The position numbers were made by a program, and so were the translations under genes. DNA of 64,000 bases from positions 1 to 64,000 of IMG/VR virus record IMGVR_UViG_3300047160_009226. The stretch is one strand, 5' to 3'. The notes under the pieces are model-generated. The model did no database searches. It was not told the DNA's origin and saw nothing but the letters and a program-made list of their open reading frames with translations. Origin of the DNA: a virus. Its lineage: Duplodnaviria; Caudoviricetes. This document shows positions 1-39,550 of this stretch, in pieces; the first letter of the stretch is position 1; every line of letters begins with the position of its first letter.

Positions 1-2398
1 GTAGCTTAAATTTCTTTTTCCTGGTCATCTCTATTTTGCCTTCCACAATGAGCTGTCCAATGACCTTCACTAGGTCACCAAAATCCATTCCCAATTTGCG
101 AGCAAGATATCGTACACTGCCTGAAAGGCGCTTGCTGTTCTTAATATGATTGTAAACTCTTTTAACTAGCCGTTGATGATGTTTAAGTGCCTTTTCGGCA
201 TTAGGATCGATCTCCATTCCCTCCGCAACCTCCTCTGCAACTTCCGCAACCAGATTACGCGCCAGTCTAAGATGCCTTTTGGCCTCCTGCTGAACCCGAA
301 CCATTCGAGCCCCAGGCCCCTCCAAAGCCACGGGAATCCCCCCAAGAGACGCCCTCAATGACCTCGGGGGCGGCTCCGCAGCCCCTACCCCCAACCCAAT
401 CCCATATCTGTCATTGATCACCCTGACCCCCAGGTACCAGTCCTGATTTGCACAGGTCCTATTAATCTGACGTGCAATTCTTTGTGCTTTTCTCAAATTA
501 GCAAGAGTCGCAGAAGCACGCCTCGCCTGCTTGGTCTTTGTTGAATTTAATGCATCATTACCAAGTTGTACAAAGCTATTTAAGTTTTTCATGACTTCAG
601 CCAAAACTTGCTGACTGATCTGAGGTCCTGCTTGAGTCAAAACCGTAGAAGCCGTACTCAAAAAACGAGATGCCGTAGCAAGTTTTTGATATAGGCCCTG
701 TCCTTGATTACCAAGATTGGCTTGTACAGTTACTGCCGCACCATTCACATATTCATTCAACTTATTGATGTTCATGACCATTGCACGCGGACTTACCTGT
801 GCACCAGGTGTAGAGAGGCCCTGCTGCAGCCGACTCGCTCCATTGACTGCCTGAGACACATATTCCCGCACTTTCTGATGCACTTGACCCGCAGTAACAG
901 GACCACCCACTGCAGCTCCCTGTCCTGCTCCTTGGGCTTGTGCAGCAGTTGTCGGTAGTGGTTTATTTTGTCTAATGAAAGTCTCCAAAAGAACATTCGC
1001 AGCAGTCATTCTTATCTGTGCGAGTGGACCGGACTTAACATCAGGATGACTACTCTTCAAAATGGTTCTAAGATTTGCTCGATCCTTATCTACGTCGCCC
1101 GTCCCTTGAATCTGCAAGGCATTCATAGCCTGTGCTGGCGTCATATTGAATTCAGCGGCTTTTCGTCTGGCTTGTTTAGTACTTTTAAGATCCGATATCT
1201 CCTCGGCATATCGACTGACCTCTTCCAAATTATGTGTCACTTCCTCTACGATGCTCTCATTAATCTGGCCTCCAACATGATTCAATGTCTTTAATGCTGT
1301 ACCCAAAAGCCAATGTGAACTTGACAACATTGCATAAAGACTATTGTTAGTTCCCAGATTGTTACTCACTAAAAACATTGCCTTATGAACAAGATCCGAT
1401 AATTCCGCAATTAACTTTGATGCATATCTCGAGTTTACTTGACTTGGATCTCCAGAGAAAATAGATAGTAGCTGATTGATCCCCTTCGTGGTTGGCTTCA
1501 CAAATCGCTGAACAACAAGATCATGCACACGTCCAGCAGTTCTCGGTCCACCAACAATCCGTCTGCGTCCACGGCGAGATGCCAACATCCCACCAATACC
1601 GCCCATTTCACCTCCAGGCGCTCCTCCCTGTTGCTGTTGCTGACCAGAGTATCCAGCCCCAGGTAAAGCCTGAGGTGTCATGGCTTGTTTGAGTGCAAGT
1701 ATATTTGCTTTTTGTTCCTGAAAGTATGTTGCTGCTGTATTGGCAAAAGTTTCGATGTCATCCCAATCATCTCCTCCAGGAGGAGTCTTCTTTATTGCTA
1801 AAATCTTAGTGTTCAAAAGATTCGTCAAACGATTCTGTCCAAAGGCTACCCACCTGCCATCAGGGAGTTTTTTAATACGAAGAGTTAACGGTGATTCTCC
1901 ATCCGTCGTAATATCCGGATGGTTAATGTTCCAAGACGAGTGCGACAGTCCACTTACAGTCCATCGAGCATCTCCTGGGGTTGCCCCTTGTGGATCCTTC
2001 AGGGATCGGGCTAATGAATCAGCAACTCGCCAAACAGCCGTTTGGAGATCACGCGTAACCATAGGGCGATGATCTGCCGGTTGATTTCTCTCCATTCTCA
2101 TTCTTGGCTCATGCGTTTTTGGCATCGCAGCCACCCTCTTTCTGAGTAGCTTTTTGTCTCTTTTGTGTGCCTGTAACTTAGCCTCATCCAGTAATTCTTC
2201 CTTGACGTCTGTCCGAAGCATATCAGGATCAATATGAATCTTGTTTATAACATATGCGTTCTGCTCTGGATCAAAAGTACCTCTGATATAACTTTTTCCT
2301 GAAGGTACTGATTGGTGTCTTTCGCCAATGTCTAGATATTGAAAGTGGTCAATCCATACTTCAAAATCATAGTTGTTGAACCGTGAAGTAATTTCCAT
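1..2398 (-). CDS. Large modular putative internal head protein (>799 aa, runs off the window edge) containing a J-domain
   Basis: Not in the ORF track. Translated by hand without stops from ATG at 2398 (MEITSRFNNYDFEVW...) to base 1 (...RKKKFKL). Contains RxA linkers (KRVAAMP, PRTAGRV, SRYASKL, RRKAAEF) and an HPD J-domain at about 983-1144. Confidence 0.85.
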   Translation of the reverse strand, partial: MEITSRFNNYDFEVWIDHFQYLDIGERHQSVPSGKSYIRGTFDPEQNAYVINKIHIDPDMLRTDVKEELLDEAKLQAHKRDKKLLRKRVAAMPKTHEPRMRMERNQPADHRPMVTRDLQTAVWRVADSLARSLKDPQGATPGDARWTVSGLSHSSWNINHPDITTDGESPLTLRIKKLPDGRWVAFGQNRLTNLLNTKILAIKKTPPGGDDWDDIETFANTAATYFQEQKANILALKQAMTPQALPGAGYSGQQQQQGGAPGGEMGGIGGMLASRRGRRRIVGGPRTAGRVHDLVVQRFVKPTTKGINQLLSIFSGDPSQVNSRYASKLIAELSDLVHKAMFLVSNNLGTNNSLYAMLSSSHWLLGTALKTLNHVGGQINESIVEEVTHNLEEVSRYAEEISDLKSTKQARRKAAEFNMTPAQAMNALQIQGTGDVDKDRANLRTILKSSHPDVKSGPLAQIRMTAANVLLETFIRQNKPLPTTAAQAQGAGQGAAVGGPVTAGQVHQKVREYVSQAVNGASRLQQGLSTPGAQVSPRAMVMNINKLNEYVNGAAVTVQANLGNQGQGLYQKLATASRFLSTASTVLTQAGPQISQQVLAEVMKNLNSFVQLGNDALNSTKTKQARRASATLANLRKAQRIARQINRTCANQDWYLGVRVINDRYGIGLGVGAAEPPPRSLRASLGGIPVALEGPGARMVRVQQEAKRHLRLARNLVAEVAEEVAEGMEIDPNAEKALKHHQRLVKRVYNHIKNSKRLSGSVRYLARKLGMDFGDLVKVIGQLIVEGKIEMTRKKKFKL

Positions 2399-2401
2399 TG
2401 G

Positions 2402-2656: not shown

Positions 2657-4024
2657 TTACCGAATCTTTACTCTCTCTATAAACCTTTGAAGTATCTGAA
2701 TAACTTTATCAATTACTCTCTGATCTGCTGGTGACTTTTCTCTTTCTCTTTCAATCTCATCAATAACATCTTTAAGAAACATAAAATGATATTTAAAAAA
2801 CTCTCTCCCGTGTTGCTGGAGCCATGAGAGGTTTACAAACATAAGTCTCTGATCTTCATCTCTTCCATTATTCAAAAATGCTCGAAGATACACCCGAAAT
2901 GAATTTACAGCGGATTCCATGTGTTTTTCAATATCTTCTGCCCACGTCGAAAACTTCTTCCCTGAAGAATAAGTTTCAGTAGGTACATTACTAATTACCT
3001 CTAATACACTGATAGATGACGGATCAAAAAACACTGCCTGAGTCGGCTCACCAGGAAAAATTGTTGCCGTATCATAATCCACAGCACCGATCAAACCTAT
3101 ACGACGCATTAACCCGGTCCACTTGCTTGGGTTGAATTCACTAAGATGTCGCGTGCAATTCCATGCAAATGCTTGATCACATTTTACACGTTGTCTCGCT
3201 TCTAGCACTACATTCGCTTTAAAATCAATGTAGCCTTTTCGACTCATAGCCTGCACTTCAGATAGTTCCATAATCCGATCTTCATAGGGAAAAGTCACTG
3301 CCTTAGCTCTTTCCATACGTCCCATAACATCTTGTAAATTCTTGAGAACCTTTTCTAAAGGAAACTCACGAGGGACCATTATCCTATATATTGTATCCTG
3401 ACCTATGCCTCCTGTATCCATAATAATACGAGATATAATATCATTAGAATGAGGCTCAAATCCAGTGGCCTTCTTCAAGTTATTAAACCATTTATCCCAT
3501 GAGAATTCATATTCCTCGGATTCTTCCAAAATTTCATCAATAGTCAACTCCACATAGTCATTAATTCTTAAAACCAAAGCCTTGACTTCGTTGTAATCTT
3601 CAGACTTGAAATCACCTGGATTTTCTACCTTAAATGCATTAATCTTCTTGGTGTCTTTCCTATTAAAATTTAGAGCCTTATCCAAGTTAGAAACACTGAA
3701 AATATGGAGATAAGGCATCTTTCCTGCAAATGGCACATCAAAGATATCTCCGCTTACTTGATCTAAGATGTAATCAACTGGATATGAATAAACACCAACC
3801 GGTGTGTTATACTTCGTCTGTGGGTTAATCCCTAATTTTGGAATTGCAGTGAATGATCCGAAAATATTGCTTTTGCCCCGATACTTATTCAATGCTTTGG
3901 AACGATTCCTGAAAATCAGACGCTCTTTTGTGGCTACGTCATAATGGACTGCCTTCCTATCCGACTCAAATAATCGTCGGGCCAAACGGGAGGTGCGATT
4001 AGAATCCAGGTTCATAAGAATCAC
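2657..4024 (-). CDS. Phage hypothetical protein with class-2 leader; possible ADP-ribosyltransferase-like fold
   Basis: 455 aa. KLGINPQTKYNTPVGVYSYP motif, recalled from large-phage hypotheticals. C-terminal GAVD...EPTQAVFFDPSSI resembles ART-like strands. N-terminus RTSRLARRLF. Confidence 0.75.
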   Translation of the reverse strand: MILMNLDSNRTSRLARRLFESDRKAVHYDVATKERLIFRNRSKALNKYRGKSNIFGSFTAIPKLGINPQTKYNTPVGVYSYPVDYILDQVSGDIFDVPFAGKMPYLHIFSVSNLDKALNFNRKDTKKINAFKVENPGDFKSEDYNEVKALVLRINDYVELTIDEILEESEEYEFSWDKWFNNLKKATGFEPHSNDIISRIIMDTGGIGQDTIYRIMVPREFPLEKVLKNLQDVMGRMERAKAVTFPYEDRIMELSEVQAMSRKGYIDFKANVVLEARQRVKCDQAFAWNCTRHLSEFNPSKWTGLMRRIGLIGAVDYDTATIFPGEPTQAVFFDPSSISVLEVISNVPTETYSSGKKFSTWAEDIEKHMESAVNSFRVYLRAFLNNGRDEDQRLMFVNLSWLQQHGREFFKYHFMFLKDVIDEIEREREKSPADQRVIDKVIQILQRFIERVKIR

Positions 4025-5125: not shown

Positions 5126-6511
5126 TCAATCGAAAAACTTACTCACATCTGGCATACCTTCCACACCGAAAACTTGATCGAACTCGTTGTCAGGCCCTCT
5201 CTGAGAAGTTCGTCGGCGGTCTGGAGCAAACTGTTGCTGGACAGGTCTACTTCTTTTTGCAGCCTGACGTCGGCGTGATTTTTGTTGAGGTGCATCCTGC
5301 CTTCTTGCAGATCCCTGACCACCCCGTGCCTGAAGAATCTCTGGCTCGTTCTCTGTATCCCAGACATTCTCCAACATGGCACGTCGCTGTTGAGCTGCAG
5401 GAGACTCACGCTCCGGACGTTTCGTCGTCGCCACACGACGTCCCGCACGATCCACCCGAGCGCCCAGAAGAGCCTCCAGGTCATCTCCCTCCAGTGGTGT
5501 CGATGCCGTGCGTTCGATGTCTTCGTCATGAACATCCAGGATCTCATCTAATGACATCCTGGCAGGTCCTGAACCACCGCTCGAACCAGTCTTCAATCGA
5601 CGATCTTGCGGCTGACGAGCCCCCGCAACCATGCGACGACCACGTCCCGCTTGTTTGGAAGCAGGGCGACGCTGTCGATTACTTACCGCCCCACCTCCCA
5701 TCGAACCGCCTCCCGTCGACGGAGTACCTAAGTCAGGAGGTGCATCTCCTTCGACATCCACCTCATCAAAGATATCTGGCTCACCAAGATCCCCCTCGTC
5801 TTCGAGTTCCTCATCTTCCATGTCCAGCATATCATCAAGATCTCCGCGATCCTCATCGAGGTCGAGAGCCTCTTCCTCGTCACCTTCGAGTTCCTCTTCT
5901 CCGAACTCGGCGTCCTCCATTTCGTCTTCCATCACATCCTGGGCATCCTCAGCTAATTCCTCTGACTCATCCAGGATCTCTTCGCCGAGTTCTTCTTCAT
6001 CGTCCGTGATTTCAGGAACTTCATCCTCGTCCTCTTCGGCCGCAACCACACGATCTTCATCCTCATCCTCGTCGTCGCCCGCAGCCAGTCGATACTTCTC
6101 TCTGGCTGCTCGGGACAGGTCCCTGGCTCGGCGAGAAGCCGTCGGAGCATGGACATCTTTCTTCGTGAGAGAATCGAGAACAGCATGGTCAGGCGTCGTC
6201 ATGACTTGCTTGGTATACGCCTGGTTGTTCGTCGGATCAGGTTGATCGGGACCGGACTCGTCCCACGGATCTTCCGATCCATCTGGTGAGGCAGCAATGC
6301 GCTTGTTCTGCTGCTGAATCGCCTGGCGACTCCTGTTGATCGCCCGTGCCTGATCCGGCCTCACTGGAGACAGTCGATGCGCTGTCGCCAGGATTTCGTT
6401 ATCCGTTGCAGAGGGGCCTAGAATGCTTTCTGCTAATCGCACATGCTCCCTCGCTCCTGCCAGTTCACTTACACTACCAAGTGTTTCCTTGGTCAGCCGT
6501 TTGCGAGCCAT
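5126..6511 (-). CDS. Putative prohead scaffold/core protein
   Basis: 461 aa with a long Glu/Asp tract and Arg-rich flanks; ends MPDVSKFFD. Lies between the protease and decoration genes and has many RxA motifs. Confidence 0.65.
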   Translation of the reverse strand: MARKRLTKETLGSVSELAGAREHVRLAESILGPSATDNEILATAHRLSPVRPDQARAINRSRQAIQQQNKRIAASPDGSEDPWDESGPDQPDPTNNQAYTKQVMTTPDHAVLDSLTKKDVHAPTASRRARDLSRAAREKYRLAAGDDEDEDEDRVVAAEEDEDEVPEITDDEEELGEEILDESEELAEDAQDVMEDEMEDAEFGEEELEGDEEEALDLDEDRGDLDDMLDMEDEELEDEGDLGEPDIFDEVDVEGDAPPDLGTPSTGGGSMGGGAVSNRQRRPASKQAGRGRRMVAGARQPQDRRLKTGSSGGSGPARMSLDEILDVHDEDIERTASTPLEGDDLEALLGARVDRAGRRVATTKRPERESPAAQQRRAMLENVWDTENEPEILQARGGQGSARRQDAPQQKSRRRQAAKRSRPVQQQFAPDRRRTSQRGPDNEFDQVFGVEGMPDVSKFFD

Positions 6512-6584: not shown

Positions 6585-6857
6585 TCACCCCTGCCGCCTC
6601 AAGAGGGCCACCAACCTCTGGGCCAATCGAGCCTCTCGCCCCCCTTGAGATTCGGATTTTGCTCTATGAGAGATCAAGATATTTTCGTCGTAATGAAATG
6701 GGTTTAATGTGGGATACAATTCATGCTTGAGATCACCAAGTTCTTTAGGAGCGTTATCATCCCCCATCAGGGCATCGATCTTCGGCCCTAGAAAAGTTGT
6801 TTCCAGTTCTTCAACAGGAGCACCAGCTTGTCTTTGTTTACTTTTCATGGTGTTCAA
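6585..6857 (-). CDS. Small hypothetical head-block protein
   Basis: 90-aa ORF on the coding strand filling the gap; contains QRQAGA. Confidence 0.6.
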   Translation of the reverse strand: MNTMKSKQRQAGAPVEELETTFLGPKIDALMGDDNAPKELGDLKHELYPTLNPFHYDENILISHRAKSESQGGREARLAQRLVALLRRQG

Positions 6858-8382: not shown

Positions 8383-8443
8383 GACTTACATCCCCCAGTT
8401 GCTCTTACTGAAAAATATCATAACTCCCACTCGAATCTCTCTG

Positions 8444-9877: not shown

Positions 9878-9885
9878 GATTACAC

Positions 9886-9904: not shown

Positions 9905-9911
9905 GATCAAA

Positions 9912-11285: not shown

Positions 11286-13481
11286 TCATATCTCCCGGTT
11301 ACTCTCTTTGTATCGAGACATAGGAACTATGGCCTTGAGCGGCTGTCCTGTGGAGACATCAGAATATTCCAGGAAACCATGCATGCGAGCCCAGAGGAAT
11401 GCGGGACGGGACACCCAAGAGACTTCCTTAAAACTGCAACTATCTTTTATGCCAGGAAGTCCACACAACTCAGATACGCGTCTTTTAATACCATTCTTGT
11501 CAATATAGTACTTGCCTAATTCGTTCTTGATATGGGTACAGTTATGTGATACAATTCCATTCGTCAAATAAGAACTACTCTCTGAATCAACGGCATCAAA
11601 AACTTCCATTTCTCCCCAAGGCTCCACTTTTACAACTTTATCAAACCACCAATCATAAGCCAGGTAGCTCCTCATTTCTTGCAGTATTCCATTTTCATCT
11701 TGAACATACTTATCCAGTAAATCAAGTACCCTCGGAAGCATTACATCAGATATCCCTTTATCTGTATCTTTCCTGACAGAATGAATCTGTCGTCTCTCTG
11801 ATGAATCAAAATCCTTTCCAAAGGATGTTCCATAAGGAACTAATTCTTTAATTTTATGGCCAGCCCTGAAAAATCCCAAGTAATCTCTTTCAATTCGCTT
11901 TGTTGTAAGTACACGTTCTAGTTTTTCTGTTTTTATTTCCGCAGAAAAACCAATATAATTTGCAAAGTTTATCCAACTCTTTGTTCCTTTAATCTCAAGT
12001 CGATACGAACGAGTAACCCCAAACGGTGTCCTCCCCACCCATCTTTTAATCTTAATGATTACACCAAATAACAAAGCAAGTTTCTTAATATCTTGGGCTA
12101 ACTTTCTATATTTTGTTCCCAAAGTAAGTCTACGAGTATTTCCTCCGGCTGATGTAATGTACCCCCCTACTCCGCCATCTGTTGTAAAAAGCCCATTCAA
12201 GAACGCCGCAATCTGTGCCCTTCCCCTCCTCCAAAGAGCCTCAGGTACACCTTCACATCTCCACTGCCCTTTCTTCCTAAAAGGAGGCAACACTTTAGTA
12301 AACTCAGGGTAGTAACTTCTTACCCGACAAAGACCCTCATTCCTCTTAACATCATTTGGAAAATCATCTGGCCCTCTAAACTCAGGGTTAACCGGGATTC
12401 CTCCCTCACTAAAAAACCGAAGCACTTTGTCTAGCGAATCAGTTTCATCTTCTGGTGACTGCCAATGGAAATATTCCGCCCATTTCTCACCGCGATATTC
12501 CCTATGCCCATCACCATAAAGATGTCCAAGAGCGTACCAAAAATCCGTTGACTCCCCACGATCCTCTGGAATTAACCCATCACAACCTTTCTTCGACAAA
12601 ACAAAATCACCTGGAATCAAATCCCATGTCATCTTCCATTGCAAACCACCTTCTACGTCCAATACCCGAAATCGATGATTTCCAGTAGAATAGATGTTTT
12701 CTCCTGAATCAGTCCTCACTCGAAAAATTTTCTTCACCCCCCTCGATATCACACCATCAAATGGGGTGTTTCCATATTCGCTCAAAACCATTCCTATACT
12801 ATTATTCTGTCTAATCTGTTCCCCGATCCTAACATACCCTTCAGAGGTAATAATTCTAGTATTACCAATCACGCAAGGCTCATCTATCCCTTCCTCAATT
12901 TTTTTGCCACATCTTGAGCATTGCGACCAAAGGATATCACAACCCATACTTATACTGTTCAAAACTCCGCCTATGATTTTTTTAACGAGCAGTGGATGTT
13001 TTTTCTTACTTGTTGCAAGAAGCACGTCAATAAATACGGTTGGGATGGGCTCACGGTGACCACTGTACTGCTTCTCTACGACCCAGGCCACAGCATCTAA
13101 TACTTTTCCTTTCGAGAATTCAGGAATAGAAACATGTTCTACGAAGTTCTCCGCCATGATAAAAGAATGATAACTCTCCAACAAAACCTGGTTCATCCAA
13201 CTATTGCCGTTGTCATTAATGTAGTGCGAATGTGGTGAGCAGATCGTATGTCCATCGTCTTCTACTTCAACACCTGCAACCGCCGTTATCCAACTTAATA
13301 AATAATCCGAAGGATTATACCTTGAAAAATCAACATTCACTTCTTTCTTAGCGACACGGCCGTTCCCTCTTAAATGACTTCGGTTCTTACAGTGCTGGTC
13401 CCATTGGTTCCAGTACCGCTCACCCGAAATCACCTGAGTCCTAAACTCTGGATGTGCAATAACTCGTCCCATACCTACCAC
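11286..13481 (-). CDS. Prohead (capsid maturation) protease with Zn-finger insertion, interrupted by an intein
   Basis: NDNGN, FVEH, KGKVLDA, SISMGC, CSRC...C(T)H and FKEVSWVSRPA motifs of HK97/assemblin-type phage proteases; extein product about 286 aa. Confidence 0.8.
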   Translation of the reverse strand: MVGMGRVIAHPEFRTQVISGERYWNQWDQHCKNRSHLRGNGRVAKKEVNVDFSRYNPSDYLLSWITAVAGVEVEDDGHTICSPHSHYINDNGNSWMNQVLLESYHSFIMAENFVEHVSIPEFSKGKVLDAVAWVVEKQYSGHREPIPTVFIDVLLATSKKKHPLLVKKIIGGVLNSISMGCDILWSQCSRCGKKIEEGIDEPCVIGNTRIITSEGYVRIGEQIRQNNSIGMVLSEYGNTPFDGVISRGVKKIFRVRTDSGENIYSTGNHRFRVLDVEGGLQWKMTWDLIPGDFVLSKKGCDGLIPEDRGESTDFWYALGHLYGDGHREYRGEKWAEYFHWQSPEDETDSLDKVLRFFSEGGIPVNPEFRGPDDFPNDVKRNEGLCRVRSYYPEFTKVLPPFRKKGQWRCEGVPEALWRRGRAQIAAFLNGLFTTDGGVGGYITSAGGNTRRLTLGTKYRKLAQDIKKLALLFGVIIKIKRWVGRTPFGVTRSYRLEIKGTKSWINFANYIGFSAEIKTEKLERVLTTKRIERDYLGFFRAGHKIKELVPYGTSFGKDFDSSERRQIHSVRKDTDKGISDVMLPRVLDLLDKYVQDENGILQEMRSYLAYDWWFDKVVKVEPWGEMEVFDAVDSESSSYLTNGIVSHNCTHIKNELGKYYIDKNGIKRRVSELCGLPGIKDSCSFKEVSWVSRPAFLWARMHGFLEYSDVSTGQPLKAIVPMSRYKESNREI
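11541..12875 (-). mobile_element. Intein (445 aa) with LAGLIDADG homing endonuclease
   Basis: Starts CVIGNTRIITSEG; block B STGNHRF; LAGLIDADG motifs ALGHLYGDG and FLNGLFTTDG; ends NGIVSHN followed by Cys. Confidence 0.93.
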
Positions 13482-13954
13482 TTCGTCAAATGAGCCGATC
13501 CATCACTGTATTTCGATTCCACTTCGTACCCTTCTCGTTCTTCCAGATATCTGGCTAACTTAGGATTAATTACCCATAATCGAGTGCGAACATTTCCATA
13601 ATGTGCGTCCTCAAAAGACTTACGTTCTTCTTCAGCGGCTTTGATCAAGTCTAATCCGATTTTTCGACCCCACCTGAACTCAGGATCAACTACGACATCG
13701 AAGCTGTAGACAAACGATACTTTAAATTGATCAAACTCATGCTCTGGTGTAATACCTATGTATGCTCCACCGACAACTCGATCTTCTATGACCGCAGCAA
13801 AACCAACGTTCTTCGTACTATCCGGCCGAATGCCTACCCTCTTGGCAATCTGATCCACCTGCTCGGCCATTTCCCAATCTTCCTCAGGATCGATGCGAAT
13901 GATCTGATACGATGCCGCAAGAAGCAACCTGGCTATTCTCATGGTGCGACCCAT
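13475..13954 (-). CDS. GNAT-fold acetyltransferase with class-2 leader
   Basis: Motif A-like VVVDPEFRWGRKIGLDLI; N-terminus MRIARLLLAAS. Confidence 0.7.
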   Translation of the reverse strand: MGRTMRIARLLLAASYQIIRIDPEEDWEMAEQVDQIAKRVGIRPDSTKNVGFAAVIEDRVVGGAYIGITPEHEFDQFKVSFVYSFDVVVDPEFRWGRKIGLDLIKAAEEERKSFEDAHYGNVRTRLWVINPKLARYLEEREGYEVESKYSDGSAHLTKW

Positions 13955-20842: not shown

Positions 20843-21346
20843 TCAGTTTATTTGCGCCGGTGTATCCGTAAATTCTGAAGCGTCATGCATATGTTTTCGC
20901 ACGCCCCTCTGAGCTTGATTGATCTGAACATGTTCCGGACGAAGTCTGGCTTTTAAATAATCCACAATCGCCTTGGGATCTCCTTCATTACCGCAGGTAA
21001 ACACATCCAGATTCATAAAATACTTTTCTGGCCAGGTATGAATAACAATGTGAGATTGACCCAGAACAATCAAGTAAGTAAACCCAAACTCAGGGTTGCT
21101 TCCATATGGAGTCAGGCGCTTATCAAAAACTTTCATGTGGCCTGCCTGCACTGCACCATCAAGGTTACTTATCAAGCCATTTTTTCCTCGCATGGTCAAA
21201 AAAGAAACGTCTGTTTGCTGATTCCAAAAGAAGTCCACATTAAGGGATAGGCCAGAACAATAATCCTGTTCTCCCGACTCAGCCGCTTCAGGCTCTGGAG
21301 CAGCGAGCAATCTCCGTGCTAGCCTATTAACCCTTGTGTAAGTCAT
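20843..21346 (-). CDS. speD: S-adenosylmethionine decarboxylase proenzyme-like protein (Q-S-H instead of E-S-H) with class-2 leader
   Basis: GFTYLIVLGQSHIVIHTWPE...LDVFTCG. Confidence 0.85.
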   Translation of the reverse strand: MTYTRVNRLARRLLAAPEPEAAESGEQDYCSGLSLNVDFFWNQQTDVSFLTMRGKNGLISNLDGAVQAGHMKVFDKRLTPYGSNPEFGFTYLIVLGQSHIVIHTWPEKYFMNLDVFTCGNEGDPKAIVDYLKARLRPEHVQINQAQRGVRKHMHDASEFTDTPAQIN

Positions 21347-30833: not shown

Positions 30834-31871
30834 TTAGAGCTGCATACTACCCCCAAGAGCGTCAATTTGTCTTTCGATTCTTGCCGTCTTGCGGGTATGC
30901 ACCGCTCCATTCTCCTTGAGGATTTGCATTTTAGAATAAATTTGACTGGCTATTCGTGTACTCATTGCGCCTTCAGACAACATACGACTTGCCAATCCCG
31001 CCAATTTCATAAATGATGCCTGAATCTCCGCTGCAACCTCTCGATCCTCTTCTGAAGATGTACGATCAAAATCAGGTGTATCTATTTCTGAATTCTGATC
31101 AACCATACCTGCTATAGATCGATCGTCTTTAATATTTGCAGGAATATCTACTTTCATGTCACTGCCAAACATATCATTAAGGTCAGTGATACTACTTCCA
31201 TCATCGTCGTCAATGACACCAATACCCAATGATTCTGCATTCACTTTTCGAGCCGGTCCCGTCAGTCTCTTGGGCTTGATCTCAAAAGACTCGGCTGGTT
31301 CAAGAATTGACGCAGCCCGCCGTGATGCGATTCTGGCTTTAATTCCTGTGTCTGCATCAACAAAAGTCGTAGCCTTGATCTTGCGGTCATGAAGTCCAGC
31401 CACTCGACTCGTCGGATTCCCTTGTCCCATCTCAACCGTTCGTGCTTCACTTTCACCCAATGTGCGGTTAGCTATGAGAATATCAGCTGTCCTGTGAACG
31501 GCTTTTTCAGGGACATGATTCGGCCCATCAATCAATGTGCCACCCATCAGACCACAACTGGCATTTCTATTAAATCCACATGAACCACACATCGGAGTCT
31601 TGTACGTCAAAATCTTCAAATGAGAATCTTTAGAGTTTTCTTTGGCTTCTTTGGCTGCCTGACAAGTTTTATACATGTTGGGATCATGTGCTGCATGTCC
31701 CAGAATTAAATACTCACGACTGATTCGAGCAGCTAATTTTCTTTTTTCCACAGAAGATAAAACTGAGACTACAGGATGGAGACCTTCAGCCAGATCTGAT
31801 CCAGTCCTGCCCTCAGACAGCAACTGGCGAGCTACCTTAACAGCCTGGCCAAATGGAGACATTAATAGCAC
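30834..31871 (-). CDS. Head-block protein with Cys cluster (CGSC...C)
   Basis: 345 aa; CGSCGFNRNASCGLMGG; ARIASRRAAS linker. Confidence 0.8.
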   Translation of the reverse strand: MLLMSPFGQAVKVARQLLSEGRTGSDLAEGLHPVVSVLSSVEKRKLAARISREYLILGHAAHDPNMYKTCQAAKEAKENSKDSHLKILTYKTPMCGSCGFNRNASCGLMGGTLIDGPNHVPEKAVHRTADILIANRTLGESEARTVEMGQGNPTSRVAGLHDRKIKATTFVDADTGIKARIASRRAASILEPAESFEIKPKRLTGPARKVNAESLGIGVIDDDDGSSITDLNDMFGSDMKVDIPANIKDDRSIAGMVDQNSEIDTPDFDRTSSEEDREVAAEIQASFMKLAGLASRMLSEGAMSTRIASQIYSKMQILKENGAVHTRKTARIERQIDALGGSMQL

Positions 31872-32689: not shown

Positions 32690-33280
32690 TTACTTATAGT
32701 ATGACGAGTATCCCTCGTAAGCAGATCCGCCAGGGGTCTTGCTGAAGTCATTATGGTCCTTGTCTTTCGGCCGAAGTGCTACAAAGAGAGTAATCGTCCC
32801 CGTGTTCGCCGTCGAAGTCCCCCCGACAATCAACGGCGCACCTGCTCGCAAAATATTCAACCCCTGTCCCAGTGTATCTGGCTGGATCGTAAACACATTC
32901 AACGTGCCCGGCTGAAGAATCGCCGTACTGAATGGTTGTCCGGTAACGTCCAAACAATTTGCTGTCGTCAAAAATTGATTCGGAACAGCAGGTTGGATCA
33001 CACCATGTAGTGTATAAGCTCCATACCCTAAGGTAAATGGAGATGCCACTGCTGTTGTTACCACATCAACCAGTGCTCCCATTGCCACGACCTGATAATC
33101 GTAGAAGGGATTCAGGAACAGTACCGCTGCCTCCCCAGTGGGAATCGCACTCAACTTCATCGGAAAATTCACCACTCGATCCTTGAGTGCCGGAATGACA
33201 TTTCGTGATCTGATCATTTTTTTCCCCTTTAAGGAAGCCCTTATGCTTCCCGTCGCAGGAATTATTCGTATCCCTATCAA
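32690..33280 (-). CDS. Putative structural beta-rich protein
   Basis: 196 aa, Thr/Gly/Val-rich. Confidence 0.7.
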   Translation of the reverse strand: MIGIRIIPATGSIRASLKGKKMIRSRNVIPALKDRVVNFPMKLSAIPTGEAAVLFLNPFYDYQVVAMGALVDVVTTAVASPFTLGYGAYTLHGVIQPAVPNQFLTTANCLDVTGQPFSTAILQPGTLNVFTIQPDTLGQGLNILRAGAPLIVGGTSTANTGTITLFVALRPKDKDHNDFSKTPGGSAYEGYSSYYK

Positions 33281-34791
33281 TCCGCCGGAATGCTTTCAAT
33301 CTTGTCAAGAAGTCTGCAGTACTGTCGATTCACCCCTTCATAGTCGATCTTCCCGGAGGCCGTCACCAGACGATTATTCTTGCCCTGATATTCGGCAGCT
33401 CCATTCCAGTAGGGCAAGAGTTCCATCGGAACGAAATCCGGTCGAGCTATACGCACTTGTCGAGGCGTCTCTCGATACGCTATCCGTGTTGATGCCGTCC
33501 TTCCACGGCTCGCCGAAGCAGCCCGACCACGATAAAACTTCAAAGCACCACGGTACTTGTCATCGATGACATAGTAATCGACATCGCCACTGCGATCTAG
33601 CAACCGTCCCTCGCTGGCAATCCGTTGTGCAGCCCGATGCCACAGACCATGCATCTCCTTAGGAACGTGAATAGGTCTGTAGACCTTCACTTCAGCTTCA
33701 TTTCTGTTCCCATTCCTCCTGACATCTCTATTGCGGGAAGACTTCCGTCCCCGATACTGACCCGACAGCCCGCCCAGCGGCTGATCCCGCTCCACGTTAT
33801 CGCCAGGCTCGTCGTTCAAGAGATCGTCGGGATCCTTCACTTCGGGCTTCACTTGACGATCAGCCATGCGTTCAATCACAGAACGTGCCCGTCCCCGACG
33901 TGTGCTGCTGGTGCGGATATCGTTGAAATTCTGCCGATTCGGCGGCTCAACACCTCGGCGATGATGACCGGAATCTGGTCCCGTGTCATTGTCGGTCTGA
34001 GCATAGGTGCCATAAAACTGAAGCGTCCCACCTTCCTGATCGACATCAACCGGCTTGGCAATATCCTCATCCCCGGACTCACCCAGATCAGCCGTCGACA
34101 ATCGATCCTCAGAGCCAAACGTACCAATGTCAACATCCATGTCAGTGTCGGCGTCGATCTTAGCAGCCGATCTTCCCTGCGAAGAACCCATCGCCATTGT
34201 CGCAGCCCGGCGAACCTGATCCCACTGTCCTCTGCGTGCAAATTCGGCAAGATCCGCAGGAGACAGATCGTTAAACGGCCATGATGTCCTTCCTGCCTGT
34301 CGTCCACGAGAACGATTCCGACCCGACTGCACTAAAATCCGATGCTTGTCCTTCCCGCTCGTAGACTGAGCAAAGTCCAAATCAGAAAGGATATCAGCAG
34401 GATTCTTATCAATGGCTTTCGCCAGAGAATCATTCCCGATTGGTGCTTTGTGGTAGTCGTCGGCCTCGTAAGAGTCATCGTAGGCCGCTTCCGGTCCCCA
34501 TGCTCCCTGCTCTCCGTCGGGATCTCCCGCCGCTGCAGTGCGAGCTACTCTCGTAGCTTCAGTATCCAATTCATTGGACACCGTATCCAGGTTAGCCGCT
34601 AAGGCCATGAGCCTCTTAGCATGTCTCGGATATTTTTGGGACAAATCCTGGACCGAATCGGCCAGGTCGTCGAGTTCCGATGTTACAGGGTGTCTCTTCT
34701 GACGCTGTGGCTGCTCTGACGAGCCCTGGACTTCATCATCATCCAGATCGTCTAACTCTGAAGCCGCCAGGCGTCTCGTTTTATTGGCCAC
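33277..34791 (-). CDS. Modular putative internal head protein
   Basis: 504 aa; modules separated by RRLAAS, RTAAAG, RQAG, RSAAK and RTASTRIA; two related C-terminal helical units. Confidence 0.85.
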   Translation of the reverse strand: MANKTRRLAASELDDLDDDEVQGSSEQPQRQKRHPVTSELDDLADSVQDLSQKYPRHAKRLMALAANLDTVSNELDTEATRVARTAAAGDPDGEQGAWGPEAAYDDSYEADDYHKAPIGNDSLAKAIDKNPADILSDLDFAQSTSGKDKHRILVQSGRNRSRGRQAGRTSWPFNDLSPADLAEFARRGQWDQVRRAATMAMGSSQGRSAAKIDADTDMDVDIGTFGSEDRLSTADLGESGDEDIAKPVDVDQEGGTLQFYGTYAQTDNDTGPDSGHHRRGVEPPNRQNFNDIRTSSTRRGRARSVIERMADRQVKPEVKDPDDLLNDEPGDNVERDQPLGGLSGQYRGRKSSRNRDVRRNGNRNEAEVKVYRPIHVPKEMHGLWHRAAQRIASEGRLLDRSGDVDYYVIDDKYRGALKFYRGRAASASRGRTASTRIAYRETPRQVRIARPDFVPMELLPYWNGAAEYQGKNNRLVTASGKIDYEGVNRQYCRLLDKIESIPAD

Positions 34792-34824: not shown

Positions 34825-35499
34825 TTACTCATAGTGGGGAACTGTAATCTTGTAAGCCCTGCTTCCATTCTCCAAAGTCGATCCATGTTTTTTGGCAATT
34901 CGACCCAACACAGAGGCTTCATCGCGAGAATTCAGTTGGCCTTTATATGCGTAAATATATGTCGCTGTCTTTCCAGAAGAATTAGGTGCAACCGTAAAGT
35001 CTACTCCCAGATCATCTAGCTCGTTCTCAATTCGAGAAACTCGTTCAGTGGCTTCTTGTTCCGCTTCCAAAGTGTTGGCCATCCGATCCAATCGTAAAGC
35101 CATACCTCGAAGATTGCTCGCCTCACGAGGAATCTCCTTGCCCAACCCTTCTAAGTGGTCAGAAATGCGATCCAGAGCCTTGCCCGATGCAAATCGATCC
35201 ATGCGGTTACCGTTGACATTCGAGTTTTCTGGCGACTTGACTTCGAAATAGTGTGCCCCCTGGCTCTCGGCAACATCAAGAGCCTTCCTGAAATTCACCC
35301 CTCGATCGACGGCCCAACGTTTGAGGTCGATCAACAACTCCTTGAGAGACTCCTGCGGATTCGCCGTGGCGTGATAACCACCGGCATATGTAGCCAAGAG
35401 CTTGTCGATGTTGGCAACCTGCGCCGTCCGACGTCCTGCCGAACGATCGACGGCCCGACTACTCCGCAACTCTCTTGTAGTTTCTTTGACGTTCATCAT
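34825..35499 (-). CDS. Modular putative internal head protein
   Basis: 224 aa; RRTAQ and RFASG linkers; helical LDRISDHLE...LDRMANTLE module. Confidence 0.8.
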   Translation of the reverse strand: MMNVKETTRELRSSRAVDRSAGRRTAQVANIDKLLATYAGGYHATANPQESLKELLIDLKRWAVDRGVNFRKALDVAESQGAHYFEVKSPENSNVNGNRMDRFASGKALDRISDHLEGLGKEIPREASNLRGMALRLDRMANTLEAEQEATERVSRIENELDDLGVDFTVAPNSSGKTATYIYAYKGQLNSRDEASVLGRIAKKHGSTLENGSRAYKITVPHYE

Positions 35500-38492
35500 A
35501 CGGTGATCCCATCAATGAGATCCTTCGATGCTTGAACCACCCCAGACACCAATCTTCGCACGATAAGACCCGCCTGTCGAGGTCTCTGGAGAGTAAACTC
35601 GGTGGTTCGGTTCTCCAAGATGCCATCATTGACCTCAACAGTCGCGTAACGACCACGAGGTGAATCATTTATTCTTGAGAAAAGAATCGATCCCACAGGC
35701 ATCGGAAGATTTTCACGGTCTACCACCGATGCCTGAATCTCAACAGAATCGTCGTAATCGCGAGCCTCGATCGAATATCGGCCACCGTTCCACTTGCCTG
35801 TGCCGGATGCCTGCCGAAGAAGTTCCGATCGAAATGCACTCCAGAGAGATGCCAGACGACCTGCCTCCGGATTCTCCCTGAGCTTCGGACGATCGACGTC
35901 CTGAGCAGTCATTGTCTCTTGCAAGGGTGCTTTAGATTCCTTGTAAAAACCCCCAGCGCCATCCGCTCCAACCCCATCCTGATCACCCACGGTAGGCTCA
36001 GGTTTCAATGGGGCATCACCCTGAGTTCGTGCCCGACGATTCCTACGGGATGATGTGGCATGCTGTCCCTGTTGACCCGGAACCATCTCGCCGTTCTGCC
36101 CACCCTGACCATTCTTCAACATGCCCATGGTACGATCGTAGTCGGACTTGAGAATGTGAGCCACTGCACCACGGTCGTACTTACCCTGAAGAGCGCTGTC
36201 AACCAACTTCAATGTGTTGGTCCAGTCGATGTCCTTGACACCCTTGCCTTCACCAGCAGATCGATGACTGGATACACCGAGAGAAGGATCCAACTTTCCC
36301 TTTAATGCATCCTCTACTGCATTGCGAGCCGCTTGTTCTTGCATACCATACTTCTGTATCAACAAATTCATCACCCAAACAGGATTTTCTCCTTCCTTCA
36401 ATCTCCTCCTTACATCCCTCCTAGCAAAATCCCATTCATCAGCTAAACGTCGAGATGCACCACGACTCGCATATTGCAAGTTCGTATCCACATCGCTGTC
36501 GTCGAAGTGTCGGACCTTGACCTCAGCTCCATCTTCCTTGAGTTCTTTCATCTTTTTGTCATATTCATCCTTGGACTTGCAAACGACCTTTTCCCAATTG
36601 TCACCGGGATACTTGAAAGAGATCTCACATCGTGTGAAATCTTCCGTAGCCCTTCGCCAATGAGAAAATTTTCGACTCTCATATTCTTCGGGGAACAGGC
36701 GTTCCCGGACCTCAGGTGGGAGTTTTCTTCCGGGGAACGCTTCCTCGTATGTCGGCAGTGGCGAATCCTCCCCATCCCCGAATTCAACACCCTCACTGGG
36801 ATATTCAAGGGGACCGGGATCAAAGGGCAATGCCTTATCATCCTTCTCATTTCTTCTGATCTTTGCCTTGCGAGACGATTCCCGAGTCAAGGACGTGGAC
36901 TTAGCTGGATCCGTACCAAAGAAGGAAAGTGTGCCGTGCCCAAACTGATCGTGATAGTCATCGACTTCGTTAGACTCATCACCCGCTACTGGAAGAGTCG
37001 CCGTCGAAAGAGCATCATACGAAAGTTCATCAGCAGCGGCCATGAGCCTGCGTGCTGTAATGGGATCCAACCGACGAATCTCTGATGCAACCTTTCTCAA
37101 TATGCCTGCTTTCTGTCGAGAAGCCCCCCTACGCGAAGCTTCAGGGCTCTCCCTCAACTTAGGACGTGTGACATCCTGAGCTTCCATCGGAATCTTCAGG
37201 GGAGAACCGGGAATCACTGTCGCAGGCGCTCCACCACCAGTCGGCTGCTGTTCATCGTCGATGGCTCGATCCTTGCCGGTATCCGGGAGAGCAACGGTCG
37301 TCCATCGTTCAAAGTAATCGTTGCCCTTGAGACCGAGATCAGGATCAGGCATCTTTTTGCCTGTAAATCCTGTCATCAGATCCATCTTAGCACGACGACG
37401 TGTTGAAATATCGTTTCTCATACCAGAAGCTCCTTGATTGATCCCTCGATATGAAGACAATGATCCATAATGTCGGCGAACAGATTTTGGATTTCGTGGT
37501 GGCGGTTTTATACCAGACTCGTCAACGTCACAGCCACCCGGATTAGAAAAGTTGTCAAGAGCATCCATAGCAGATTGTTCGCTAGAGAAAGGTCCGTAGT
37601 TGGTACAGTCCTTAGGATCGTAAGCATATTCAAAGTTACCGAGTTCCATATACCATTTTTGATCAGTTGCCTTCCAAATTAAACATTGGCGTTGTTGGCT
37701 AGCAACCCGTCTTCGAGATGCACCCTTACGATTTCCGAGCATCTGATTCGGCTGTGGATCTTCATATCGAGGGTCGGTTGGCTTCTCCATAAGTTTTCTC
37801 ATTTTGTCCTGAATCTTAGGAAGCGATCGACTCGCTTCATCATGACTAACATACCCCAGTGCTTTCGCCGCATCTTCGACGGTTACCTCTTCAGGATCCA
37901 TACCACTCATAATAAAATCATGAGCCGCCCTTTCAATGTCAATCCAATCCCACTTATCCATCTTAGCACGACGACGTGTTGAAATATCGTTTCTTATGCC
38001 AGAAGCTCCTTGATTGATCCCTCGATATGAAGATTCCACGGGGATCTCCCAATCATCGTGCTTACCGGTATAACCTCTCGCACCAGGCTGATTAGGAAAA
38101 AGATCCATGTGTGTTAAGTGCTCCCACTCACGAGGACGAGTTCCTGGCTCTTCAGAGTAGTTTTCAACGAACTCCTTCAACTGTTCAAGTAGTGCGATCG
38201 ATTTATCTCGCCTCGCCTCTTTTTTTTCTTTCTCTTTTTTGGGATCCCACAAATTTTTGAATGGTTTTCCAGGAACCACCTCTCCCTTATAACCTTGTTC
38301 CTCAACAATCTCCCATTTCTTTTCATTCTTTATGTGATAGTCAATAGTGTCCAGCACCTGCTGCTTCTTATCATCTCGAATCCTGCCGGTTCGCCAAAAT
38401 TCATCAAGAGCACCAAAACTAGGGTAAAAGTGTCTCGCTACAAATCTGGCTTCATCCAGAGAAAGCATTTTAGTTCCTTCAGACAGCTTCAA
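35496..38492 (-). CDS. 998-aa polyprotein-like putative internal head protein
   Basis: Many short modules separated by ASRR/RxA linkers; internal 78-bp duplication. Confidence 0.88.
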   Translation of the reverse strand: MKLSEGTKMLSLDEARFVARHFYPSFGALDEFWRTGRIRDDKKQQVLDTIDYHIKNEKKWEIVEEQGYKGEVVPGKPFKNLWDPKKEKEKKEARRDKSIALLEQLKEFVENYSEEPGTRPREWEHLTHMDLFPNQPGARGYTGKHDDWEIPVESSYRGINQGASGIRNDISTRRRAKMDKWDWIDIERAAHDFIMSGMDPEEVTVEDAAKALGYVSHDEASRSLPKIQDKMRKLMEKPTDPRYEDPQPNQMLGNRKGASRRRVASQQRQCLIWKATDQKWYMELGNFEYAYDPKDCTNYGPFSSEQSAMDALDNFSNPGGCDVDESGIKPPPRNPKSVRRHYGSLSSYRGINQGASGMRNDISTRRRAKMDLMTGFTGKKMPDPDLGLKGNDYFERWTTVALPDTGKDRAIDDEQQPTGGGAPATVIPGSPLKIPMEAQDVTRPKLRESPEASRRGASRQKAGILRKVASEIRRLDPITARRLMAAADELSYDALSTATLPVAGDESNEVDDYHDQFGHGTLSFFGTDPAKSTSLTRESSRKAKIRRNEKDDKALPFDPGPLEYPSEGVEFGDGEDSPLPTYEEAFPGRKLPPEVRERLFPEEYESRKFSHWRRATEDFTRCEISFKYPGDNWEKVVCKSKDEYDKKMKELKEDGAEVKVRHFDDSDVDTNLQYASRGASRRLADEWDFARRDVRRRLKEGENPVWVMNLLIQKYGMQEQAARNAVEDALKGKLDPSLGVSSHRSAGEGKGVKDIDWTNTLKLVDSALQGKYDRGAVAHILKSDYDRTMGMLKNGQGGQNGEMVPGQQGQHATSSRRNRRARTQGDAPLKPEPTVGDQDGVGADGAGGFYKESKAPLQETMTAQDVDRPKLRENPEAGRLASLWSAFRSELLRQASGTGKWNGGRYSIEARDYDDSVEIQASVVDRENLPMPVGSILFSRINDSPRGRYATVEVNDGILENRTTEFTLQRPRQAGLIVRRLVSGVVQASKDLIDGITV
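37380..38033. repeat. 78-bp direct repeat (37380-37457 and 37956-38033), 2 mismatches
   Basis: Encodes SSYRGINQGASG[IM]RNDISTRRRAKMD twice, 576 nt (192 codons) apart. Confidence 0.92.
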
Positions 38493-39550
38493 TTGATCCA
38501 GCTAACCATACTTCTCACTCTTTCTGCCAAATCACAGAATACCTCCTCTCCCTCCTCACCCAAGCTCTCACCAATACTCTCCAATTCATTAGATACAGAT
38601 TCCAGTCTCGCGGTAGCCACTCGCCTCACCTGAGATGGGGATCTCATCCACCGTCGACTAGCTGCAGGAAATGGTGCGGGTGCTGGAGGTACTCCCCCCG
38701 GAACCGGTGGAGGTCCTCCCGCTGGTGGCATACCACCTGGCATAGGTGCTGGAGCAGGTGGAGCCCCTGCACCAAAAGGCATCTCTCCTCCCGGAGGCAT
38801 GCCAAGATCTGGTGGGATAGATTGTTCTGGAGGAGCGGCAGCAGCCCCTTGATCTCCTGCCGGAGCTACTGGCTGTTCAGGAGCTTCCTCCTCAATTTCT
38901 TCTTCTACACCCGTATCCTCTGGTCCAAACCGTACAGGAGGTTCTGCTGGAGTAGATTTCTCGTCAATATCTTCAGCGATAAGTTGATGGATATGATCAG
39001 ATACCTTGACTATCTCTGCTTCAGCGTCTTCATCTGGAATCTGGCCAACAAACTGCTCAGCCCCAGAGTCGAAACCGGATATCTGTACTTTTCCATCATC
39101 GTCTACTGTAACTTTCCAAGAAAGATCTTGCACACGAATAGAAAGTTCATTAGGTGCGGATTCCTCAACTACTGCGTCTGCTTCTCCCAATTCGGCCCAG
39201 ATCATTCCCGCAAGTAATTTCAGCCTTGACTTTCTAAGAGTCTCTTTCCCTATCTCATCATCGTTATAATCTAAACCATCATCATCGTCATCATCATCAT
39301 CACCACCAAATAACAAAACACTTTTTTCTCCTTTTTCATACTTATCTTCATCTTCATCGGCTTCTTCCCTAAGATCATCTGTATCTCGATAGATCTTAGC
39401 TGTAGGCTCTACTTCAGTGATTGGAGGTTTGATGTGTTTATCTGGACGATACTCATCCTCATCAAGTGGTTGTGCCGTACGACGTGCATCAGTTGCAACT
39501 CTAGAAGTTCCATTGACCAGAATAGATGCCAATCTATTAATGCGATCCAT
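38489..39550 (-). CDS. Acidic/Pro-rich head-block protein with class-2 leader
   Basis: MDRINRLASILV...RRTAQ; PAASRR linker near the C-terminus. Confidence 0.8.
   Translation of the reverse strand: MDRINRLASILVNGTSRVATDARRTAQPLDEDEYRPDKHIKPPITEVEPTAKIYRDTDDLREEADEDEDKYEKGEKSVLLFGGDDDDDDDDGLDYNDDEIGKETLRKSRLKLLAGMIWAELGEADAVVEESAPNELSIRVQDLSWKVTVDDDGKVQISGFDSGAEQFVGQIPDEDAEAEIVKVSDHIHQLIAEDIDEKSTPAEPPVRFGPEDTGVEEEIEEEAPEQPVAPAGDQGAAAAPPEQSIPPDLGMPPGGEMPFGAGAPPAPAPMPGGMPPAGGPPPVPGGVPPAPAPFPAASRRWMRSPSQVRRVATARLESVSNELESIGESLGEEGEEVFCDLAERVRSMVSWIN

Follow-up and report, generated by a model that had tools for sequence, protein, structure and literature searches.

A recurrent R-x-A motif in head-associated proteins of an uncultured soil jumbo phage, a candidate cleavage signal of its gp21-like prohead protease

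The stretch of viral DNA studied here (the window; positions 1 to 64,000 of the IMG/VR record IMGVR_UViG_3300047160_009226) covers the initial 64 kb of one contig of 200,689 bp, which that record classes as linear and 91% complete. The contig belongs to a divergent, uncultured jumbo phage from soil, whose nearest annotated relatives, judged by the portal protein, are an uncultured 485-kb phage and the Tunturiibacter phage Tunturi_5 and, more distantly, Bacillus phage G. A short motif, consisting of an Arg and an Ala separated by one free residue (R-x-A), recurs in the head-associated proteins of this phage and is rare elsewhere. We consider it likely that a basic residue two positions before an Ala (basic-x-Ala), in this phage R-x-A, constitutes the cleavage motif of the gp21-like prohead protease encoded among the same genes.

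The 40 minus-strand open reading frames (ORFs) of positions 1-39,550, referred to as the head block, contain 44 copies of the motif followed by Ser, Ala or Gly (R-x-A-[SAG]), compared with 14.6 ± 3.9 expected from whole-protein shuffles and 15.6-18.5 from local shuffles within segments of 10-50 residues (z 5.9-7.6), and none of 400 local shuffles reached 44 sites. The enrichment over shuffled controls proposed in an earlier, sequence-only reading of this DNA was thus borne out. ORF starts were set at the longest possible frame and may be a few codons too long, and the minus strand carries nearly all genes. In an unbiased scan of a-x-b patterns, R-x-A came out on top in the head block (119 vs 72) but not elsewhere in the genome; the remaining high-ranking four-letter patterns stem from three beta-propeller paralogues. 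No enrichment was found in this phage for K-x-A, R-x-G, R-x-S, R-A, H-x-A, Q-x-A or the reversed motif, the phiKZ-type pattern [SAG]-x-E is flat, and [LI]-x-E shows an equally mild enrichment in head and non-head proteins. R-x-x-A reaches z 3.5, owing to a frequent second Arg at P4 (the Arg of the motif being P3 and the Ala P1). The head-block context favors R or S at P4, I, V, T or Q at P2 and R at P2', and Ser is the commonest residue after the Ala (P1'), so that the preferred form reads [R/S]-R-x-A followed by S > A > G and others. At conserved junctions P1' can also be K, R, V, T, Q, D or N, a broader range than the S/A/G to which the sequence-only reading had limited it.

That the excess is a statistical artefact of an Arg- and Ala-rich composition is hardly credible. 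The flanks of the sites are indeed enriched in R, A, S and Q, and the unbiased scan shows a mild excess of A-x-R (100 vs 73.6, z 3.2), but the tightest shuffle, in 10-residue segments, still yields z 5.9, the reversed motif with S/A/G and the look-alike motifs are flat, and the positions of the sites are conserved across orthologues. A compositional origin was therefore rejected on the strength of the local shuffles and the look-alike controls. A DNA motif was rejected as well, since the sites use all six Arg and all four Ala codons; the signal acts at the protein level.

The sites are unevenly distributed: 38 of the 44 lie in seven proteins, and about half of the large head-block ORFs, rather than most of them as first claimed, show the pattern. 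The terminase TerL, the three propellers, the homing endonucleases and the protease core have no sites. The replication part of the window (39,551-64,000) contains 9 R-x-A-[SAG] against 5.0 expected, and the genome beyond 39,550 as a whole 52 against 38 (z 2.2-2.4), part of this excess coming from a cluster at 106-116 kb that includes a NUDIX fusion and from leader-bearing proteins. The pattern thus extends beyond 1-39,550, to the leader-bearing proteins at 45,988, 56,793 and 57,169 and to the 106-116 kb cluster. The motif-bearing proteins of the head block are the following, with a slash placed after the last residue of each proposed site:

35496..38492, minus strand: beads-on-a-string protein of 998 aa (probably 990 aa); of its 17 R-x-A sites, 7 have the form R-x-A-[SAG]; RRVA/S, RSA/G, RLA/S and RQA/S
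33277..34791, minus strand: 504-aa protein with 8 R-x-A-[SAG] against 1.4 expected; RRLA/AS, RTA/AAG, RQA/G and RSA/A
30834..31871, minus strand: 345-aa protein with 6 R-x-A-[SAG] against 0.7 expected; tandem RIA/SRRA/AS
34825..35499, minus strand: 224-aa protein composed of a leader with RSA/G and RRTA/Q, a variable middle and a C-terminal module after DRFA/S
38489..39550, minus strand: 353-aa protein with a class-2 leader (RLASILV; leader classes are defined below), then RVA/T and RRTA/QP
16503..18206, minus strand: 567-aa modular protein with a leader MRRRLT...RRTA/A, a module of ~75 aa, then RRA/G, PRTA/G and RVA/G
5126..6511, minus strand: scaffold-like 461-aa protein with 11 R-x-A sites, 5 of them with S/A/G; KRIA/AS, RLA/AG and RTA/S
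1..2398, minus strand: 799-aa ORF truncated by the contig start, with 5 R-x-A-[SAG]; RYA/S and RKA/A; module at aa ~98-246 after RKRVA/A
23386..25593, minus strand: portal protein (phrog_16240, 1e-19) with N-terminal sites RIA/S (33-36) and RQA/A (38-41), the latter within RRQA/AG
6585..6857, minus strand: 90-aa ORF between the propellers and the scaffold-like gene, with RQA/G at residues 9-12

The examples quoted in the sequence-only reading for the scaffold-like, 504-, 998- and 567-aa proteins, the portal and the 799-aa ORF are all present, with the qualification that RKVAS is an R-x-x-A. The 461-aa protein owes the label scaffold-like to its position and composition: it has an N-terminal leader M.RKRLT, a very acidic center, an Arg-rich C-terminal third and a conserved C-terminal peptide, and it gave no family match. 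Individual modules of the 998-, 567- and 504-aa proteins gave nothing above threshold in Pfam, no modular protein matched a Pfam peptidase family, and the segment 929-1171 (minus strand), which directly follows KQARRKA/AEF and had been proposed as a J-domain, had no DnaJ match in Pfam at E<=1. Candidate effector domains include a NUDIX fusion and an ART-like lead. The former is a 734-aa protein (G000:C1:109137-111341; L013 9137-11341, minus strand) with an N-terminal NUDIX domain (4.7e-18) and R-x-A-[SAG] sites in its C-terminal part.

Nine related metagenomic loci were recovered for comparison (the metagenome scan gave one locus, and IMG/VR scans with the 998-aa protein and the portal gave no relatives), along with three more distant phages, L014-L016, whose proteases are 52-55% identical. 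Head-block orthologues, taken from L002-L010, contain 112 R-x-A-[SAG] against 36.9 ± 5.9 expected (z 12.8) and replication orthologues 5 against 2.8. The distant relatives L014, L015 and L016 give z 5.2, 1.7 and 4.4, respectively, and the scaffold-like orthologue of L014 contains 12 sites against 2.9 expected. Conservation amounts to 79% for motif Arg residues vs 65% for other Arg, and to 74% for motif Ala vs 65% for other Ala. Because related sequences share sites by descent, all these orthologue-based tests are non-independent samples.

In the alignment of the 998-aa family (A2; 10 sequences, with orthologues of 553-856 aa), the conserved blocks are interspersed with modules that only some members possess, and wherever a module is absent its two flanking linkers fuse into one. 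The junction cores RRRA/KMD, RRTA/AEDF, RGASRRRxA/GEG, NRRA/RTQG, IRQA/SG and PRQA/[GSA] are kept in 5 to 10 of the 10 members. The AlphaFold2 (AF2) model of the 998-aa protein is mostly of low confidence (mean predicted local distance difference test score, pLDDT, 47.6) and contains seven folded islands, six of which begin 0-13 aa after an R-x-A (p~0.003, for a distance range chosen post hoc). In this protein, islands and alignments agree with the earlier notion that Arg-rich linkers separate modules. The gene also shows internal repetition: a 24-residue linker ending in ISTRRRA/KMD is duplicated (residues ~145-170 and ~337-362 of P0029), and a block AQDVxRPKLRExPEA occurs twice. The 504-, 345- and 353-aa families keep their site positions with slight wobble. 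All six members of the 504-aa family retain a site at alignment columns 91-93, 167-182 and 487-505, and the 353-aa orthologues have N-terminal parts of differing lengths before RR[TV]A/QP. Both N-terminal portal sites are retained in the L004 orthologue (TARMA/SRRTA/SG).

Individual modules change their context and keep the motif. The ~75-aa module of the 567-aa protein was found in 31 cluster representatives, at the N-terminus or internally (e.g. at 119, 168, 197 or 518), directly preceded by R-x-A in 23, by K-x-A in 4 and by R-x-x-A in 2 of them, with nothing conserved upstream. In three phages (including L005 and L006) the C-terminal module of the 224-aa protein forms part of a fusion, behind DRF[AS]/, and in two it stands alone, namely in L007, where it starts with MLKFS/P, and in L004, where it follows a leader ...SRAA/Q. 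Likewise, the L003 orthologue of the 799-aa ORF starts at the module that follows RKRVA/A, the second of this ORF, and in distant relatives this module is a separate gene of 173-361 aa. Taken together, the comparative data suggest a functional junction signal.

Modules clearly shuffle in these phages, and the motif could in principle be a by-product of that shuffling, left at recombination junctions such as the duplicated 24-aa linker of the 998-aa protein, or else a modification site, for instance of an R-x-x-S basophilic kinase, given that Ser is the commonest residue after the Ala. We regard both origins as very improbable. The use of all Arg and Ala codons means that there is no conservation at the DNA level, and the motif persists in proteins that are 35-50% identical as well as through the replacement of Arg by Lys described below. 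At conserved junctions Ser is swapped for A, G, K, V or Q while the Ala is kept, which is not what a phospho-acceptor would lead one to expect; with Ala and not Ser as the conserved residue, R-x-x-S kinase sites were rejected.

Otherwise unrelated proteins of this phage share N-terminal leaders that end in the motif, as in prohead-protease substrate systems. Two classes recur: class 1, M-[KR]-L-T-x-x-Y-x-R-[VI]-A, and class 2, R-[LI]-A-x-x-L-L, the latter occurring at N-termini with 8.9 times its density in protein interiors. The scaffold-like protein and the 567-aa family have a third pattern, M-x-R-[KR]-R-L-T, in common at their N-termini. The leader is followed by R-x-A in 5/9 and 7/10 proteins of the two classes, compared with 21/174 ordinary N-termini (p 0.003 and 8e-5), and in one family the orthologues of two phages bear class 2 and those of two further phages class 1, with R14 and A16 invariant. 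Further leader-bearing proteins of the window are:

2657..4024, minus strand: 455-aa enzyme-like protein with a class-2 leader RT.RLA..LL, then R-x-[AGS]/VH
13475..13954, minus strand: GNAT acetyltransferase (PF00583, 2.9e-5) with a class-2 leader RIARLLLAA/S
20843..21346, minus strand: S-adenosylmethionine (AdoMet)-decarboxylase-like protein (PF02675, 2e-21) with a class-2 leader RLARRLLAA/P
45988..46380, minus strand: replication-block protein of 130 aa whose class-1 leader ends in RWA/AE
56793..57531, minus strand, outside 1-39,550: two small genes with class-2 leaders, then RTA/V and RQA/A

The leader of the 455-aa protein is conserved in homologues at 32-65% identity. Its atlas neighbors are ART-PolyVal/RES at 0.88, below the guide value of 0.9, so that an ADP-ribosyltransferase identity is a lead only; its motifs DQAFAWNMTRH and HPNEPTQAVFF are strongly conserved, and the gene has a tandem duplicate in L003 (1950-4585). 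The head region also encodes a protein that has a ParB_N domain (3.9e-8) and a class-1 leader, and another that has a WYL domain (18464-19120 and 19137-19676, minus strand); the WYL gene is conserved in L014-L016, where it adjoins the portal gene.

The protease gene sits in the head module near the portal and scaffold-like genes, as those of gp21-fold prohead proteases do. In the window the portal gene is followed at a distance by the genes of the protease, the scaffold-like protein and a 178-aa protein, and L014-L016 and Tunturi_5 have a compact order of TerL, portal, protease, scaffold-like and major capsid genes, with the scaffold-like gene directly after that of the protease. The corresponding features are:

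27230-29359: TerL (PHROGs match), 0 R-x-A-[SAG] sites
11286..13481, minus strand: precursor of the prohead (head-maturation) protease, 731 aa (phrog_18299 head maturation protease, a weak match at 1.9e-5)
11541..12875, minus strand: LAGLIDADG intein, aa 203-647 (PF14890 Intein_splicing, 1.9e-9; PF14528 LAGLIDADG_3, 5.2e-10)
13350..13358, minus strand: candidate self-processing site R42-V-A44/K (GNGRVA/KKEV), just before the conserved catalytic core

The intein displays Cys203 as Cys1, a TGNH block B, a terminal His-Asn647 and Cys648 as the +1 residue, and its insertion point precedes the family's conserved Cys of the DEPC-H motif. Joining of the exteins (aa 1-202 and 648-731) would produce a protease of ~286 aa, and intein-free homologues of ~283 aa, up to 81% identical, run continuously across the insertion point. 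The 'helicase' matches of this ORF stem from inteins in the helicase genes of other phages. In relatives, inteins occupy other genes instead, namely portal genes (L015 3877-6975; L016 4554-7658) and a TerL gene (L016 161-3031).

Neither extein matched Pfam at E<=1. An AF2 model of the closest intein-free homologue (P0039, pLDDT 73) found its best match in T4 gp21 (5jbl_A; Z 9.7, root-mean-square deviation 2.7, 138/165 residues aligned), followed by the proteases of varicella-zoster virus (1vzv, Z 6.9), human cytomegalovirus and Kaposi's sarcoma-associated herpesvirus (Z 5.3-6.9); a Foldseek search of PDB with the protease model returned nothing significant. According to this model, the protease has the T4 gp21/herpesvirus assemblin fold. 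H81, H113, S175 and H253 are invariant in 21 homologues (alignment A3) and are candidates for the catalytic residues. The prohead protease assumed in the sequence-only reading is supported, and the SMG serine that it named is the invariant S175. A candidate self-processing site recurs across the family: in 17/21 members [RK]-x-[AS] falls at column 37 or 54 of the alignment, within the variable N-terminal stretch that precedes the core. When residues 45-283 of P0039 (the catalytic domain) were co-folded with the N-terminal 60 aa of the 567-aa protein, the score was 0.00 without controls, a result that counts neither way.

The Tunturi_5 protein gp331 is homologous to this protease, with E 1.5e-44 against the family profile and ~37% identity. 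In the local gene order it is followed by a 528-aa protein, a 165-aa protein and the major head protein. In 46 kb of Tunturi_5, K-x-A-[SAG] occurs 52 times against 18.1 expected (z 8.1), and R-x-A-[SAG] is not enriched. The K-x-A-[SAG] sites accumulate in the 'DNA ejection protein' gp328 (12 vs 2.5), in gp332 at the scaffold position (8 vs 1.6), in the DarB-like gp350 (10 vs 2.6), in gp348 (8 vs 2.6), which has a ~40-aa stretch in common with the 345-aa protein of the window, and in gp345 (5 vs 1.2). The major head protein gp334 has two sites in its first 30 aa, and the protease has two, with GKTA/ATKE at the place equivalent to R42-V-A44/K. Sheath, terminator and fiber proteins are at or near shuffle expectation with 0-2 sites each, replication genes are at background (13 vs 9.8), and P1' is S or A, as in the R-x-A phage. 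The very large NUDIX fusion gp321 of Tunturi_5 adjoins its virion genes. Virion proteomics is not reported in the Tunturi paper. The most economical reading of this switch, and in our judgment a probable one, is a clade-specific preference for Arg or Lys within the gp21-fold protease family. Of all the evidence, this switch and the test on the shuffled module depend least on shared descent.

The same comparison bears on the proposal that the sites are cleaved by another enzyme, either a host protease or a second phage protease, before or after packaging. The evidence that ties the gp21-like protease to the motif is indirect, and polyvalent proteins have been proposed to be processed by other peptidases (PMC5512222). 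Nevertheless, such an enzyme appears quite improbable, considering that the change from Arg to Lys goes along with the divergence of the gp21-like proteases between the two lineages, that the substrate classes match those of prohead proteases and spare the tail proteins, and that no embedded peptidase domain was found in the modular proteins.

Several observations weigh against cleavage by the gp21-like protease. T4 gp21, the closest solved relative of the protease, cuts after Glu, so that an Ala specificity is not inferable from fold or homology, and the argument of the sequence-only reading from protease kinship to cutting after Ala falls away. Composition-based proxies of disorder and hydropathy show no difference between site flanks and other positions. 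Some conserved R-x-A also lie inside predicted helices or strands (GRYA/TVEV, DRGA/VAHI, GRLA/SLW), and hence not every occurrence can be a site. The enrichment in L015 is weak (z 1.7), and some stand-alone carriers of the ~75-aa module have leaders of ~6 residues (MTTRTA/, MAQRRA/), which a domain-start or docking motif would fit as well as a cleavage site. Finally, the major capsid gene is missing from the contig, and its homologues in L014 and L015 are without an obvious N-terminal R-x-A.

Part of this would suit a motif that is not cleaved and acts as a basic patch at domain starts, recruiting proteins to the procapsid by binding the scaffold core, the portal, the protease zymogen or DNA. 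Leaders of ~6 residues still retain R-x-A, several sites are predicted to be helical, the flanks are not disorder-like by composition, and the leaders resemble amphipathic helices (RLARRLLAA). Still, we find a docking role unlikely. A two-residue core with a small P1' and a free P2 is typical of a protease site and not of a binding epitope, the motif occurs many times within the scaffold-like and ejection-type proteins, and the points of gene fission coincide with it. Furthermore, the protease, the portal and the major head protein of Tunturi_5 carry it at N-terminal boundaries, like known prohead-protease substrates.

As to the major capsid gene, PF05065 and PF07068 were not found in the contig, and a tblastn search of the 200.7-kb contig with the major head protein of Tunturi_5 gave nothing (best E 1.5). 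Homologues of that protein are present in L014, L015 and L003, in the last as two adjacent plus-strand ORF pieces (~10300-11116) of a possibly interrupted gene. Since this L003 gene is situated downstream, within a few kb, of the orthologue of the truncated 799-aa ORF, the capsid gene of our phage probably sits in the missing ~9% of the genome. The candidates at 16503-18206, 174,662-176,308 and 152,591-154,108 had no phage-database matches. The first of them (567 aa) was rejected because the protein is modular, and a 344-aa leader-bearing family was rejected because its GTKWCT core and RFPxGEP repeats are not capsid-like.

If the gp21-like protease does cut at basic-x-Ala, the system might operate as follows. 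The protease would be made as an intein-containing precursor, splice to ~286 aa and enter the procapsid core together with the scaffold-like protein, the portal, the multi-module proteins and the leader-bearing enzymes, the leaders serving as two or three interchangeable classes that each end in R-x-A. Once activated, it would trim its own N-terminus, remove the leaders, chop the scaffold-like protein and cut the multi-module proteins, presumably after the Ala, at the R-x-A that precedes each module. Because a cut would precede every module, modules could be added, lost, moved between carriers or encoded as stand-alone genes with the released product unchanged. A broader proposal, to which we give somewhat less than even chances, is that the motif provides a plug-and-play route for capsid cargo in a widespread lineage of soil jumbo phages: any module placed behind basic-x-Ala, in a carrier or after a short leader, would be packaged and released by the gp21-like protease, the P3 preference would have co-evolved with the substrates, and modules and effectors would be exchanged as cassettes.

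Other elements of the head module deserve mention. PHROGs matches among the window proteins and the structural candidates elsewhere in the genome were limited to the portal, TerL, the homing endonucleases and, weakly, the protease. Three tandem DUF5122 beta-propeller paralogues (PF17164, 3e-67; 6961-11282, minus strand) lie between the protease and scaffold-like genes; no R-x-A-[SAG] occurs in them, and the compact head modules of L014-L016 and Tunturi_5 lack them. Selfish elements are abundant, comprising homing endonucleases, inteins and a putative intron. Two free-standing GIY-YIG homing endonuclease genes (22103-22867 and 29383-30282, minus strand; phrog_314, 9e-39 and 6.5e-34), also without R-x-A-[SAG], adjoin the portal and TerL genes. 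The putative group I intron, at 4318-4568 (minus strand), matches the RF00028 model over its full length with 39.4 bits, less than the gathering score (50), and E 3e-8; it lies close to the 3' end of 4538-5074, the conserved head-module gene for the 178-aa protein.

Processing by prohead proteases is known in detail for few phages, and the T4 and giant-phage systems considered here cut after Glu. A basic-x-Ala specificity in a gp21-fold enzyme, if true, would widen the known range of this protease superfamily and allow mature virion proteins and packaged effectors to be predicted by a simple rule throughout a large, nearly unannotated group of soil jumbo phages. The cassette-like placement of the motif would then explain how repertoires of injected effectors are assembled and exchanged, and would represent a natural design for loading foreign proteins into capsids. 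With Tunturi_5 and its Acidobacteriota host, Tunturiibacter psychrotolerans X4BP1, in culture, the prediction is directly testable.

Among known systems, polyvalent proteins are large multi-module proteins, encoded in the neighborhood of head genes and believed to be packaged and to be delivered along with the DNA, for which processing by embedded peptidases (e.g. MPTase) has been proposed (PMC5512222). The effector types named in that study, namely ART (here a lead only), GNAT, ParB-like, NUDIX fusions and DarB, also occur here or in Tunturi_5. They differ in that no embedded peptidase was detected here, a short common motif and a separate prohead protease being proposed instead, and in that most modules of our phage match no known family. 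The prohead proteases of giant phages such as phiKZ and SPN3US cut many head proteins at the short motif A/S/G-x-E, and the mapped cuts of SPN3US gp245, which is itself a substrate, release N-terminal propeptides (PMC10052503). Our phage resembles those of phiKZ gp175 and SPN3US gp245 in being a jumbo phage with many head and ejection proteins apparently processed at several sites. It differs in that [SAG]-x-E is not enriched and in that, whereas gp245 frees propeptides, here each retained module is apparently bounded by a site, as judged from computational evidence alone.

Herpesvirus assemblin, which cuts at (V/L/I)-x-A/S, shares the fold superfamily of the modeled protease (Z 5.3-6.9), and the proposed P1 Ala and preferred P1' Ser are the same. 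The P3 residue is Arg here (Lys in Tunturi_5) rather than aliphatic, and dozens of sites are spread over many proteins, compared with two in the protease-scaffold precursor of the herpesviruses. The T4 protease gp21 cuts many head proteins after the Glu of (L/I)-x-E and removes targeting propeptides, and the internal proteins IPI-III and Alt carry capsid-targeting sequences. Compared with T4, the motif here is R-x-A instead of (L/I)-x-E, two or three leader classes are interchangeable, the motif also bounds internal swappable modules of large proteins, and the protease gene has an intein and matches no Pfam family. On the other hand, the gp21 fold appears to be shared according to the model (Z 9.7), the scaffold-like, portal and protease proteins carry the motif, and short N-terminal leaders that end in it are found on unrelated proteins, among them enzymes and an ART-like protein that recalls Alt.

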